A stretch of 64,000 nt of DNA, taken from assembly GCF_050920415.1 (NCBI RefSeq), contig NZ_CP169309.1; one strand, given 5' to 3'. Source of the DNA: Escherichia coli (GTDB lineage: Bacteria > Pseudomonadota > Gammaproteobacteria > Enterobacterales > Enterobacteriaceae). Positions 29,762 through 50,785 of the stretch are shown here, in pieces; positions within the stretch are counted from its first letter, which is position 1; every line of letters starts with the position of its first letter. The notes under the pieces are model-generated. The model made no database searches and was not told the origin of the DNA. It worked only from the letters and a program-made list of their open reading frames with translations. The translations under genes and the position numbers were made by a program.

Positions 29762-30580
29762 GTGAAACGACTACAAGCATTTAAATTCCAGTTAAGACCA
29801 GGTGGTCAACAGGAGCGTGAAATGAGGCGCTTCGCAGGCGCATGTCGTTTCGTTTTCAATCGTGCTCTGGCGCTTCAGAATGAGAATCATGAGGCCGGTA
29901 ATAAATACATCCCTTACGGGAAAATGGCTTCCTGGTTGGTTGAGTGGAAAAACGCCACTGAAACGCAATGGCTTAAAGATTCGCCCTCACAGCCATTGCA
30001 ACAGTCACTGAAAGACCTTGAGCGGGCTTACAAAAACTTCTTCCAGAAGCGGGCTGCTTTTCCCCGATTCAAAAAGCGTGGACAGAATGATGCATTCCAC
30101 TACTCGCAGGGCGTTAAGCTCGATCAGGAAAACAGCCGTATTTTTCTGCCGAAACTGGGCTGGATGCGCTACCGGAATAGCCGTCAGGTCACGGGTGTTG
30201 TGAAAAATGTCACTGTCAGCCAGCCGGGGCGCAATGTCCGGGCAAAATCAGGTTTAAACCGTTCGATACTGGATCAGGGCTGGTATGAAATGCGCCGTCA
30301 GCTTGAGTACAAGCAGCTCTGGCGTGGCGGTCAGGTGCTTGCTGTTCCGCCAGCGTACACAAGCCAGCGTTGCGCGTGCTGTGGTCATACAGCGAAAGAA
30401 AATCGCCTGTCACAAAGTAAATTCAGATGCCAGGTATGTGGATATACAGCGAACGCCGATGTAAATGGCGCTCGTAACATTTTAGCGGCGGGGCACGCCG
30501 TTCTTGCCTGTGGAGAGATGGTGCAGTCAGGCCGCTCGTTGAAGCAGGAACCCACCGAAATGATTCAGGCGACAGCCTGA
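29762..30580 (+). CDS. tnpB: TnpB-like protein, short (272 aa), apparently lacking the central RuvC-I/II region
   Basis: N-terminus [13 protein letters not shown]...FPRFKKRG...[10 protein letters not shown]-terminal zinc finger CACCGH...CQVCGY and [10 protein letters not shown]; no GIDLG-type motif seen. Confidence 0.7.
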
Positions 30581-30620
30581 ACGTAGCAGGGATCCACGTC
30601 CTTCAGGGCGTGGAGGATGT

Positions 30621-32446
30621 GTGCGCCCAGCATGGGCGCGATCTTGGAGGTGAAAGTCCTCCCGCGAGCTGACCACAGCGAGCGAAAGGAAGTGCAACTG
30701 CGTGAGGGCGACCGGGCGTGGGGAGGAAGCACGGAATGAACCCGTGAGCCGATGAACAAGAATCGGATATGAGGCGCGATGGAGCAAGGCGAGCAGGCAC
30801 ATCACTGCGAAGCTTTCGTGGTCAAGTCGAAGTCGCGTAGATCCGGCGGTTGTGCGGGGAAGGATCGCGTTCTTACCTGGGGAGATCTCGCCTCATGCCT
30901 GAAAGGGCAACGTCGTAAGACGGAGCGAGAAGTCAGCAGAGGCCGTAGTAGTCAGGACTCCGACGAAGGGCCGAACGAGAAGGAAAGCCAGAAGATATGA
31001 CTCCTGACAGGACATTGCGTCAGAAGCCGGGGAAGCCCGGGCGCATCGTGGGCAGCGAGGGTGAAGCCCGCGCGGTCTCGTCGCGTGACGAAGCACTGTC
31101 GGCGAGTCATGACCCGGAAGGCTTGGGGCGAGCGGACCTGCTTCAACAGGTGCTCTCGCGCGAGAACATGGTCGAGGCGTGGAAACGCGTCAAGGCCAAC
31201 AAGGGAAGTGCAGGTGCTGATGGATTGACCATCGAGCAGACTGTTGAACACCTCAAGACTCGCTGGCCATACATTCGGGAAGCGCTTCTCAACGGGACAT
31301 ATCGGCCTCAGCCTGTGCGTCGCGTGGAGATTCCGAAACCGACTGGTGGCACTCGGGAATTGGGCATTCCGACAGTTACTGATAGGCTCATTCAGCAAGC
31401 GTTGCTACAAGTCCTGCAACCGTTGATCGACCCGACATTCTCGGAGTTCAGCTATGGCTTCCGGCCGGGCCGGAGCGCGCACGACGCAGTGCTACAAGCA
31501 CAGCGGTACGCGCAAGATGGATTCCGGGTGGTAGTTGATGTTGACCTTGAGAAATTCTTTGATCGGGTCAACCACGACATTCTGATGGACCGACTTGCCA
31601 GGCGAATCGCCGACAAAGCCGTACTACGGCTGATTCGGCGCTACCTGCAAGCTGGGATCATGGCGGATGGTGTGGTAATGGCGCGTGACGAGGGGACGCC
31701 GCAAGGCGGTCCACTGTCTCCGCTGTTGGCCAATGTGTTGTTGGACGAAGTAGATCGGGCGCTGCAACAGCGCGGTCATCGCTTCGCCCGGTACGCCGAC
31801 GACTGCAACGTGTACGTTCGCAGTCAGAAGGCGGGAGAACGAGTACTGCGTTGGATGCGCAAGATGTATGAGCAGTTGCATCTGCGCGTGAACGAGAAGA
31901 AAACCGAAGTGGGTCCGGTATTCGGGCGTAAGTTTCTCGGCTATTGCCTTCGGCGCTGGTCAGGAAACACCGTCAAGATTGCTGTTGCTCCGAAGGCGCT
32001 CGACACGTTCAAACGGCGTATCCGGCTCATCACCAGACGCGTTGGAGGCCAGGGCATAACCCAGATTGCCGAACAGATGCGGATATACCTTCGAGGCTGG
32101 AAGTCCTACTTCCGGCTGGCACAAACCCCGAAGATATTCAAAGATCTGGATTCGTGGATACGTCACCGACTCCGGGCTATCCAGCTGAAGCACTGGCGCA
32201 CGGGAACGACTGTCTATAATCGCCTCCGCAGTCTCGGGGCTACCCATGAGCAGGCCGCACTTATGGCAGGAGGCGCGGGGCACTGGTGGAGACACAGCGA
32301 AGCTGGGCTGAACCGTATACTTACAGTCGACTACTTTGATGCTTTAGGTTTACCTCGACTCGCATAACCTCAACTTCTCGAACCGCCCGGTGCGGACCCG
32401 CATGCCGGGTGGTGTGGCAGGGGCGCCGCCTTGTGCTGCCCCCTAT
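30621..32446 (+). mobile_element. group II intron (bacterial class C-like) with internal RT/maturase ORF
   Basis: Begins GTGCG; GC-rich structured 5' region; IEP ORF in the domain IV position; downstream 30-nt hairpin with 2-nt bulge (about 32383..32412) as domain V; ends ...CCCTAT. Confidence 0.7.
30997..32367 (+). CDS. group II intron-encoded reverse transcriptase/maturase, no endonuclease domain evident
   Basis: 456 aa; RT motifs (RRVEIPKPTGGTRELGIP, FRPGRSAHDA, YADDCNVYV) and C-terminal maturase-like region. Confidence 0.9.
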   Translation: MTPDRTLRQKPGKPGRIVGSEGEARAVSSRDEALSASHDPEGLGRADLLQQVLSRENMVEAWKRVKANKGSAGADGLTIEQTVEHLKTRWPYIREALLNGTYRPQPVRRVEIPKPTGGTRELGIPTVTDRLIQQALLQVLQPLIDPTFSEFSYGFRPGRSAHDAVLQAQRYAQDGFRVVVDVDLEKFFDRVNHDILMDRLARRIADKAVLRLIRRYLQAGIMADGVVMARDEGTPQGGPLSPLLANVLLDEVDRALQQRGHRFARYADDCNVYVRSQKAGERVLRWMRKMYEQLHLRVNEKKTEVGPVFGRKFLGYCLRRWSGNTVKIAVAPKALDTFKRRIRLITRRVGGQGITQIAEQMRIYLRGWKSYFRLAQTPKIFKDLDSWIRHRLRAIQLKHWRTGTTVYNRLRSLGATHEQAALMAGGAGHWWRHSEAGLNRILTVDYFDALGLPRLA

Positions 32447-32451
32447 GCCGA

Positions 32452-33123
32452 TCAATAAACAGGTTGAATTAACTCCGCTCCCTGGTTTTTGACATTACCT
32501 ACCGCGCGCGACACAGGGTGCCAGGTGAACTGGTTTGCTGGCACACAGCCACTGGTAGCGATTTCTGAGGCTTCTTTACCGCTAATCTCTTGCCGCATCC
32601 ATTCCCGCGCAGTTTCTGGCGACAGTACCAGCGGGCGGCGGTCATGAATATCTACCAGGCCCTGGTCTGCTGCTGCAGTGACAATTAAAAATCCTTCGGC
32701 CTCGTCACCGCGCTCAAACGGTGTGCTACCTATCGCGGCCATAAAAACAGGTTGTCCATCAGCGCGATAGATAAAATAAGGCTGTTTTTTGTCGCCTTCT
32801 TTTTTCCACTCAAACCAGCCATCGGCAAAACAGATTGCCCGACCATGTTGCCAGAGCGGTTTAAACATACGACTGGTTGCCGCAGTTTCTACGCGGGCGT
32901 TAATCAGCGGCGGTTTATCCCACCATCCGGGAGCATATCCCCAGAAAACCGGATCCAGATGAAGGTGTTCATCACGTTCACTGAGCAGAAGAACTTTGGT
33001 TCCCGGCGCGACGTTGTATCTGCCAATGGGTTCGGGATCGTAGGGAATATCGCGTTCAATATCTTCCGCGAGAAGCGCAAGGTAATCTTCACGCGTTTGG
33101 GATTGGGCAAAGCGTCCACACAT
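32452..33123 (-). CDS. yedK: SOS-response-associated peptidase (SRAP) YedK
   Basis: 223 aa starting MCGRFAQS (Cys2). Confidence 0.9.
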   Translation of the reverse strand: MCGRFAQSQTREDYLALLAEDIERDIPYDPEPIGRYNVAPGTKVLLLSERDEHLHLDPVFWGYAPGWWDKPPLINARVETAATSRMFKPLWQHGRAICFADGWFEWKKEGDKKQPYFIYRADGQPVFMAAIGSTPFERGDEAEGFLIVTAAADQGLVDIHDRRPLVLSPETAREWMRQEISGKEASEIATSGCVPANQFTWHPVSRAVGNVKNQGAELIQPVY

Positions 33124-50483: not shown

Positions 50484-50559
<76 letters not shown>

Positions 50560-50612
50560 GTTTAAAAGACATCGGCTTCAGCGGATGTCCGGCTGAAAGG
50601 CCTGAAGAATTT

Positions 50613-50686
50613 GGCGCGTTAACAAAGCGGTTATGTAGCGGATTGCAAATCCGTCTAGTCCGGTTCGACTCCGGAACGCGCCTCCA
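50613..50686 (+). tRNA. cysT: tRNA-Cys (GCA)
   Basis: GGCGCGTTAACAAAGCGG...GATTGCAAATCC...GGTTCGACTCCGGAACGCGCCTCCA. Confidence 0.9.
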
Positions 50687-50698
50687 CTTTCTTCCCGA

Positions 50699-50785
50699 GC
50701 CCGGATGGTGGAATCGGTAGACACAAGGGATTTAAAATCCCTCGGCGTTCGCGCTGTGCGGGTTCAAGTCCCGCTCCGGGTACCA
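50699..50785 (+). tRNA. leuZ: tRNA-Leu (UAA)
   Basis: GCCCGGATGGTGGAATCGGTAGACACAAGGGATTTAAAATCCC...GGGTTCAAGTCCCGCTCCGGGTACCA with long variable arm. Confidence 0.9.

Follow-up and report, generated by a model that had tools for sequence, protein, structure and literature searches.

A predicted class C group II intron inserted in the right end of IS609 in Escherichia coli

Locus and insertion site

We analyzed a 64,000-nucleotide stretch of the chromosome of Escherichia coli strain MFDS1022581 (contig NZ_CP169309.1; the whole stretch is hereafter referred to as the window), in which a group II intron with its own reverse transcriptase (RT) gene interrupts the insertion sequence (IS) IS609 beside the host gene yedK. 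The genes are ordered fliE, emrE-ybcL-ybcM, IS609, ltrA and, on the minus strand, yedK-yedF-yedE. The IS609 copy covers 29266-30620 plus 32453-32455 and shares 96.6-97.6% identity (BLAST) with the IS609 annotated in K-12 MG1655, whose copy starts TTAT/CCGGTGCGCC and ends ...GGAGGATGTCAA/, also written ...GGATGTCAA/ (slashes mark junctions here and below). From left to right, the element carries tnpA (29323..29754, minus strand), tnpB/insQ (29762..30580, plus strand; stop codon 30578-30580) and, at its right end, a subterminal hairpin (30593..30614, plus strand), after which the intron is inserted (30621..32452, plus strand). The last three nucleotides of the IS609 right end, CAA (32453..32455, plus strand), are thereby cut off from their hairpin, as recognized from the K-12 IS609 end and from the junction comparison below. 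The convergent host gene yedK occupies 32452..33123 on the minus strand (open reading frame (ORF) list, RefSeq and empty-site comparison).

Comparison of filled and empty sites at two loci, together with Rfam matches and consensus folds, defined the intron as GUGCG...GCCGAU, with ends that conform to the group II consensus (5' GUGYG, 3' AY). Intron-free E. coli genomes (L004 and L005) read ...CGTGGAGGATGT/CAACAAACAGG (in short form ...GGAGGATGT/CAACAAACAGG) and the window reads ...CGTGGAGGATGT/GTGCG...CCCTATGCCGAT/CAATAAACAGG; the difference between the filled and the empty site gives an insert of 30621-32452 (1832 nt), with the 5' exon of the empty sites ending ...GGAGGATGT/CAA. The intron has the same orientation as tnpB; 6 nt separate it from the stem of the right-end hairpin, and 3 nt of IS609 remain on its 3' side (...GGATGT^CAA/). 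It thus splits the terminal TCAA of IS609 as T^CAA, and the T with which it ends recreates a TCAA at its 3' junction. Wherever an E. coli-type junction was examined, the intron is followed by CAA, beyond which the sequences diverge; this fixes the terminus of IS609. The stop codon of yedK is made up of the last intron base together with CA from the IS609 terminus (TCA on the plus strand, 32452-32454).

An earlier reading made from the letters of the window (the sequence-only reading) had placed the GTGCG 5' end at about 30621, which the empty sites show to be exact. Its 3' end, CCCTAT at about 32446, has to be moved 6 nt further, to 32452 (...GCCGAT), according to both the empty sites and RNAalifold, and the intron does not stop 5 bp before the yedK stop codon as proposed there: its last T (32452) forms the start of TCA, which is that stop codon seen from the plus strand. 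The intron had also been described as sitting just past the end of an IS200/IS605-like element; the hairpin and the identity of the element, IS609, agree with this description, and the position does not, the intron being located 3 nt inside the terminus. The intron 3' boundary and the overlap with the yedK stop are of practical relevance to annotators.

Intron-less copies of this IS right end were found in many E. coli genomes, in which an intron-free IS609 adjoins yedK (L004, L005 and matches H57-H95, all with yedK under the match). Since the IS is present at these empty sites without the intron, IS609 beside yedK is older than the intron. The reverse order of events, an IS inserting beside a resident intron, is ruled out by the same sites.

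Ribozyme structure and intron-encoded protein

We next examined the ribozyme. Rfam matches to group-II-D1D4-3 (30702-30872, 103.6 bits, E = 4e-20) and group-II-D1D4-1 (30890-30971, 46.8 bits) cover its 5' part, and a consensus fold of domains I-III (RNAalifold, first 372 nt, 25 relatives) contained 98 pairs, of which 37 are compensatory. This fold was restricted to relatives of at least 70% identity and left out 13 distant sequences, with which the alignment had swollen to 607 columns. Domain V is a 32-nt element with a 2-nt bulge at 32382..32413 on the plus strand (RNAalifold, 6 sequences), which reads CCGCCCGG...CCGGGUGG and has CGC at the position of the catalytic triad. A CGC rather than an AGC triad and a shortened domain V helix are hallmarks of class C (IIC) introns. 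Domain VI (32415..32450, plus strand) has a bulged UA at 32444-32445 and five pairs with compensatory changes among 6 copies or relatives (RNAalifold), including the basal helix, where GGCA/UGCC is replaced by GGGA/UCCC in the Burkholderia and Pseudomonas relatives. The predicted branch A is 32445, 7 nt from the 3' end, and the TA of CCCTAT, formerly taken for the end of the intron, is the domain VI bulge. Without its ORF, the ribozyme measures about 460 nt. The group II fold expected by the sequence-only reading can therefore be modelled, with matches to Rfam and domains supported by covariation, and the bulged hairpin that it had named as domain V (about 32383..32412) was recovered almost to the nucleotide.

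The intron-encoded protein (IEP; 30997..32367, plus strand, 456 aa) had been annotated in that reading as an RT/maturase, in agreement with its Pfam domains: RVT_1 (8.6e-40) and GIIM (2e-18) were found and nothing else, so that the protein combines an RT with a YADD motif and a maturase, and has no endonuclease domain. Its best solved relative is the GsI-IIC RT (6AR1, 8e-129, residues 48-455), with which the intact IEP aligns end to end. The four best solved matches (6AR1, 7UIM, 5HHJ and 5HHL) are all IIC proteins, followed at a distance by a IIB protein (2e-42) and the IIA protein LtrA (6.5e-38), a class grouping that is read from match scores to solved structures. A retron RT or the RT of a diversity-generating retroelement, which the sequence-only reading had named as possible alternatives, was rejected: retron RTs score about 1e-5 to 1e-6, against 8e-129 for the IIC RT, and the GIIM domain is present. 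Judged from these sequence features, the intron is a class C (IIC) intron, which shows the IIC features that were tested, with EBS3 (exon-binding site 3) unlocated.

Repeated occupation of the same nucleotide

Across the collections searched, the same nucleotide of an IS609-type right end was found occupied in the window and in at least six other contexts; seven junctions are described here. The window-type yedK site itself recurs in L014 and 22 similar assemblies. A second recent copy lies on a plasmid, the 61.5-kb contig L015, where a tnpA-less IS609 with a full-length TnpB adjoins hicB and carries the intron at the same nucleotide. Between L015 and the window, the intron shows 0 mismatches over 1832 nt and the host IS 41 mismatches over 870 nt, and the host IS copies, which do not have the same set of genes, diverge by 2-7%. 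The reconstructed empty site of L015 matches five E. coli plasmids at 99.8% over 800 nt.

Further occupied sites are derived from plasmids. In L006 and L008, the intron lies in a plasmid-derived region beside a traG fragment, with the junction GGATGT^CAA. The same junction is used by a 483-nt ORF-less mini-intron in plasmid pCombat11I9-3 (L007, 4001-4483) and in other P1-like plasmids; the records of the latter are among about 90 plasmid matches (H35-H55, H105-H134). The deletion in the mini-intron joins IEP codon ~13 to the domain V 5' strand at a GCCCGG repeat, its triad reads AGC in place of CGC, and the lower domain V stem is weakened. It follows a perfect palindrome, TTGACATCCTCCACG...CGTGGAGGATGTCAA. 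Phage P1 itself does not have that palindrome, and homology to P1 and its relatives breaks off precisely at its 5' foot.

Two types of rearranged copies were also detected. In E. coli STEC711 (L002, 3983-4228, between ygiV and parC), TTAT is followed by 14 nt from the start of the IS609 left end, by the 3'-terminal 224 nt of an intron of 92% identity, and by CAA. This remnant is unannotated in RefSeq and looks like an old IS609-with-intron composite whose interior was later lost. Some 1,360 chromosomal matches cover an identical span and are probably likewise IS609-intron remnants; the one inspected is that of STEC711. The other type, seen in L003 (3990-4025) and L178, is a mini-IS609 with one hairpin, a left-end/right-end hybrid that carries the intron at the usual point. 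There, the left-end sequence CCGTAAA(A/G)CCCCGT runs directly into the right-end half GGGCGTGGAGGATGT, as would result from recombination between the two hairpins within the CCTTCAGGG loop that they share.

These copies bear on whether the intron entered each right end or was carried there. After a single entry into an IS609 right end, TnpA could have moved IS609 and the intron together as DNA by using the regenerated TCAA. The retained terminal CAA and the T that restores TCAA would fit such a course, as would the ability of TnpA to accept end motifs at variable distance (PMC10055086) and the ygiV-parC remnant, in which sequence from the left end of IS609, the 3' end of an intron and CAA form one unit; co-transposition may have contributed to older copies. 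Nevertheless, we regard it as a very improbable explanation. Intron-free IS609 occurs at the identical loci (yedK and the hicB plasmid site), so the IS preceded the intron; the window and L015 have the same intron sequence in host IS copies that are not identical; and in another IS, with a TnpB of only 58% identity to InsQ, the intron is still 92% identical.

We also asked how far the intron could be a dead relic or a one-off ectopic insertion close to a hairpin by coincidence. Full-length copies are rare, being present in 2 of 5426 complete E. coli genomes, the second of which has a broken ORF, and most E. coli matches are fragments. Against this stand the intact IEP with its YADD motif and end-to-end alignment with the GsI-IIC RT, the occurrence of a protein identical to the IEP in 155 indexed blocks of the assembly collection, two identical copies at different loci that each have an empty counterpart, and the repeated use of one nucleotide, and we give this explanation next to no weight. 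The sequence-only reading had supposed that a class C intron may have taken the hairpin of the IS end as its target. Occupation of the same nucleotide in several independent contexts supports that view, and the evidence exceeds the original wording: as judged by these comparisons, the right-end site is a homing site and neither a one-off nor a chance location.

Exon recognition

We then focused on the features by which the site could be recognized. The last 5 nt of the 5' exon, GATGT (30616..30620, plus strand), constitute the predicted intron-binding site 1 (IBS1), and the terminal loop of a domain I hairpin in the consensus fold contains ACAUC (30799..30803, plus strand), the predicted exon-binding site 1 (EBS1), which pairs with GAUGU at all five positions. 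Both assignments are supported by complementarity and by covariation in 21 relatives, in which EBS1 and IBS1 change together (e.g., AUGAA with UUCAU, UAGAA with UUUUA, and AAUGG with UCGUU). Across 21 distinct intron/site pairs, 4.67 of the 5 positions were paired, compared with 3.55 +/- 0.17 in shuffles (maximum 4.0; n = 200). The base at +1 is C at all E. coli-type sites, and C32453, the first base of the terminal CAA, is the presumed IBS3.

The right-end hairpin is the second feature. It comprises CCACGTCCTTCAGGGCGTGG at 30594-30613, with a 9-bp stem formed by 30593-30601 and 30606-30614 and a TTCA loop, and folds as DNA at -7.7 kcal/mol (z -3.0). No T run follows the stem on its 3' side, and a terminator scan of the window did not report this hairpin. 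Among 16 occupied right-end-type sites, the stems differ with compensatory changes.

Relatives and their targets

To place this site among those of related introns, we scanned one genome per species with a 26-nt pattern of the intron 5' end and obtained at least 120 loci; among the matches listed, nearly all follow a GC-rich stem and a T run. Copies of about 75% identity in Burkholderia stagnalis, Pseudomonas putida pKF715A and Pandoraea also follow ordinary terminators, consistent with the statement in the sequence-only reading that class C introns target sites just past stem-loops. At 135 distinct terminator sites, the spacer between stem and insertion point is mostly 5-9 nt, compared with 6 nt at most right-end-type sites, and these 135 sites have a stem-loop and a short IBS1 in common but no shared sequence.

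A 44-nt pattern drawn from the intron only, and hence unbiased as to the exon, matched 57 metagenome contigs, whose 5' flanks fell into four groups. The first consists of about 25 terminator-like sites. The second comprises 11 right-end-type sites of the form GGAAUCC-stem-CUUYAGG-stem-GGAGGAUGU/, with stems that differ and compensate mutually and with CAA after the intron wherever it is readable. The third has about eight sites, which read CACGCC-TTCG-GGCGTG GGATGA/ and are matched by an EBS1 of UCAUC, and the fourth about five, which end in GTGCC or similar (TTGCC, TCGCC). A TnpB homologue with 30-58% identity to InsQ was found upstream of 5 of the 11 sites in the second group (L172, 58% and full length; L165, 57%; L193, 48%; L159, 30%; L147, a fragment), and in L172 and L193 the TnpB, aligned to its C-terminus, ends 45-51 nt before the intron. 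No tnpB is shown upstream of L076, where 144 nt of upstream sequence are available. The six closest distinct relatives (77-98% over 900 nt) all occupy right-end-type sites, and terminator-type relatives begin at 76%.

The members of the third group include a sister group of 1902-nt introns (L144, L145, L157, L163, L170, L176 and L181, all from metagenomes), which follow CACGCC-TTCG-GGCGTG GGATGA/, a hairpin that is likewise no terminator, and have a 3' exon that starts TAC. No InsQ-like TnpB was found within 2 kb upstream of these introns. Separately, at least 58 contigs of Candidatus Burkholderia verschuerenii UZHbot4 (L017-L074), a leaf-nodule symbiont, carry a related class C intron directly behind a terminator, in nearly all cases no more than about 300 nt from where the retrieved sequence ends. 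We take this as a sign that the intron has proliferated massively in that symbiont, and it may have fragmented the assembly.

The conserved surroundings of the right-end sites leave room for an account without a role for the hairpin, in which GGAGGATGT and CAA are read by base pairing and protein contacts and the stem-loop is present merely for TnpA. The stem 3' flank GGAGGATGT and the CAA are nearly invariant among occupied sites, and the hairpin, at -7.7 kcal/mol, is weaker than the terminators of the relatives (-10 to -14 kcal/mol). We consider this account unlikely. The 135 terminator-site relatives share only a stem-loop and a short IBS1, at a similar distance from the site (5-9 nt, against 6 nt here), and dependence on a stem-loop is an established property of class C introns (PMC4424553, PMC3522654). 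In L159, moreover, a different tail (GAGTGTT) is accompanied by a matching EBS1 (AACAC), with the hairpin in the same register.

Interpretation and proposed mechanism

Taken together, we hold it to be highly probable that the element in the window is a recently mobile class C (IIC) group II intron, which reached the right end of an already resident IS609 by retrohoming. We read the distribution of targets among its relatives as that of a recently mobile IIC sublineage, apparently retargeted from terminators to the right-end hairpins of IS605-family elements.

In the mechanism that we propose, the intron ribonucleoprotein (RNP) would read the right-end hairpin of the IS top strand as a single-stranded DNA stem-loop, with the 5 bp between IBS1 and EBS1 and a +1 C as further determinants. 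The intron RNA would then reverse-splice into the IS top strand, as suggested by the behavior of class C introns (PMC4424553, PMC3522654), and synthesis of the complementary DNA would be primed from the nascent strand at the replication fork, because the IEP has no endonuclease. The target (plus) strand is probably the lagging-strand template, with cumulative GC skew positive across the window. Because the hairpin has no T run and is not a terminator, tnpB transcripts should continue into the intron and would express it, unlike the terminator-resident relatives, which depend on read-through. Splicing would restore an RNA of the form ...GGAUGU-CAA-flank, which by analogy with IS605-family elements would correspond to the junction between the scaffold and the guide of the TnpB guide RNA (PMC10055086). 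At the DNA level, the intron would move the hairpin 1.8 kb away from the cleavage motif, and excision by TnpA is probably impaired by this separation.

Several observations weigh against parts of this interpretation. EBS3 could not be located: among 11 full-length relatives, none of the domain I columns varied in step with the +1 base. The role of the hairpin cannot be separated from its conserved surroundings (GGAAUCC...GGAGGAUGU CAA), which are also constrained by TnpA, and at the P1-like site a longer stem, of 12-14 bp, takes in IBS1. Two IncF plasmid fragments (L136, 1330-1385, and L137, 2915-2970, near sopA) are followed by CGA, not CAA; they are 5'-truncated, 94-95% identical to the window intron and end GCCGAT/CGATAAGG, and may represent a variant or ectopic site. 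The assignment of the target strand to the lagging-strand template is derived from GC skew alone. TnpA tolerates flexible spacing and alternative downstream end motifs (Meers et al., PMC10055086), and with the last intron T recreating TCAA, it is uncertain whether the intron immobilizes the IS. Finally, TnpB is internally deleted in the window, so the consequence for a guide RNA is moot for this copy.

A broader view would make this class C clade a dedicated parasite of IS605-family right ends, which it enters through the single-stranded DNA hairpin of TnpA, rendering the guide RNA dependent on splicing and hindering excision, so that a retroelement, a transposase and an RNA-guided nuclease would be in conflict. 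We put this forward tentatively, as a possibility that is more doubtful than the homing event itself.

Relation to known systems

The closest known systems are the terminator-targeting class C introns (B.h.I1, Di.ze.I1, So.gl.I1 and the Burkholderia, Pseudomonas and Pandoraea relatives), which share with the present intron about 75% nucleotide identity, a ribozyme of about 460 nt, the CGC triad, an endonuclease-less IEP, a short EBS1-IBS1 pairing and insertion a few nucleotides 3' of a DNA stem-loop. In contrast, the stem-loop used here is no terminator but the IS200/IS605 right-end hairpin recognized by TnpA, the EBS1 is ACAUC where theirs are A-rich (AUGAA, AAGAA), and the site is specific enough to act as a homing site. 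The protein of GsI-IIC from Geobacillus stearothermophilus (RT structure 6AR1) is the closest one solved; that intron belongs to another host and lineage and was compared by its protein alone. The IIC-attC introns (S.ma.I2 group) are likewise class C introns whose target has shifted away from terminators, in their case to integron attC recombination sites, which act as a folded single-stranded DNA hairpin for the recombinase of another element (PMC4424553, PMC7923331). Their partner is an integron with its integrase, whereas here it is an IS605-family transposon with its Y1 transposase, the terminal cleavage motif of which is split.

Group II introns within IS elements are common in E. coli (PMC3522654), and in this respect the nested composite is less unusual than the sequence-only reading had supposed; it is the IS200/IS605 right-end hairpin as a target that is unusual. 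The E. coli introns E.c.I2 and E.c.I9 (in H-rpt IS), E.c.I3 (IS679) and E.c.I4 (IS3-family elements) also have their homing sites in multicopy IS elements (PMC3522654). They belong to other classes and use long sequence-specific sites in transposase genes, whereas the present intron is assigned to class C and uses a non-coding terminal hairpin. In a survey of Enterobacteriales, IS609 is not among the targets reported, and the only class C introns are Di.ze.I1 of Dickeya and So.gl.I1 of Sodalis, with none in Escherichia (PMC3522654). Group II introns with an RT-HNH fusion protein have been described in cyanobacterial IS605 elements, with no end specificity reported (Kapitonov et al., PMC4810608); that protein carries an endonuclease domain, which the IEP described here lacks.

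IStrons provide another parallel, in that a self-splicing intron shares its DNA with a TnpB/guide-RNA transposon and an interplay of splicing and guide RNA is possible (PMC10690162, PMC4227781). Their intron is of group I, spans the whole IS and moves as DNA, whereas the intron in the window appears to be an autonomous, RNA-mobile group II intron nested in the right end. The IStron was considered as an identity for the present element and rejected, since the ribozyme is of group II, has its own RT and occupies only the last part of the right end.

Reviews list homing sites, terminator motifs and attC sites as the target specificities of bacterial group II introns (PMC4424553); for class C introns, the right-end hairpin of IS605-family elements would extend this list by one more target made of structured DNA. 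In the literature searched, IS609 was not connected with group II introns, nor were the ends of IS200/IS605 elements with class C introns; the specialist intron database lay outside this search, and a catalogue name may exist. Like attC, the right-end hairpin is folded single-stranded DNA that serves a recombinase, and it fits the idea that IIC RNPs read single-stranded stem-loops at replication forks. The element would also provide E. coli with an IIC intron of its own, whose IEP is apparently intact and whose target is defined and easy to mutate. With the intron placed at the presumed boundary of guide-RNA scaffold and guide, copies with a full-length TnpB (L015 and L172) would be suited to testing an interplay between splicing and guide RNA of the kind shown for group I IStrons. 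The interest of the system would be greater should an interplay of the intron with TnpA and with the guide RNA of TnpB prove real.

Host element and neighboring features

The left side of the IS609 copy is flanked by the TTAT target motif (29262..29265, plus strand), with the same TTAT/ junction at the K-12 IS609, L015 and L002. The left end (29266..29301, plus strand), identified by alignment with the start of the K-12 IS609, includes a subterminal hairpin (29282-29301) that folds weakly (-4.0 kcal/mol). In four contexts, IS609 extends from TTAT/ on the left to ...TCAA/ on the right, with subterminal hairpins rather than inverted repeats at both ends and no duplication of the fixed tetranucleotide 3' of which it is inserted, as in the IS200/IS605 family. 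The tnpA gene encodes the 143-aa Y1 (HUH) transposase of IS609, as indicated by the ORF list, RefSeq and a Pfam Y1_Tnp match on the identical gene of L014.

Compared with the K-12 IS609 (BLAST), tnpB encodes 272 aa instead of 402, the result of a 390-bp in-frame internal deletion with its junction at about 30212-30223, at a 12-nt direct repeat. Pfam OrfB_IS605 is present in the 402-aa form and absent from the 272-aa TnpB; HTH_OrfB_IS605 and the TnpB zinc-ribbon domain were found beside the Y1_Tnp of the element. The same 390-bp deletion is common to many other E. coli (the L005 group), and the most similar IS copy (N96, 99.7%) has a full-length tnpB; the deletion either is recurrent or was moved by recombination. 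At the tnpB 3' end, a RAGATH-18-like motif (30507..30550, plus strand) lies in the presumed scaffold region of the guide RNA (omega RNA). This cmscan match, which scores 29.5 bits where the gathering score is 44.9, is a hint only, as is an even weaker match to sot0042; the RAGATH-18 match recurs in L015.

On the other side of the intron, the TGA stop codon of yedK extends over the right terminus of IS609, in the empty sites L004 and L005 as in the window, and IS609 and the 3' end of yedK therefore overlap. Immediately outside the IS, the window has a T/C difference by which the last yedK residue changes from Cys to Tyr.

Upstream of IS609, emrE, a frameshifted ybcL and ybcM lie between fliE and the IS (window 25500-28400; L001 1933-3793). 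In K-12, we take emrE, ybcL and ybcM to belong to the DLP12 prophage and this position to be held by yedL-yedN-yedM-intG; the emrE-ybcL-ybcM region thus appears to be a variable island. The known RNA genes elsewhere in the window are DsrA (13578-13664, 102.9 bits), RseX (5153-5242, minus strand, 99.3 bits) and three tRNAs (50484-50782).

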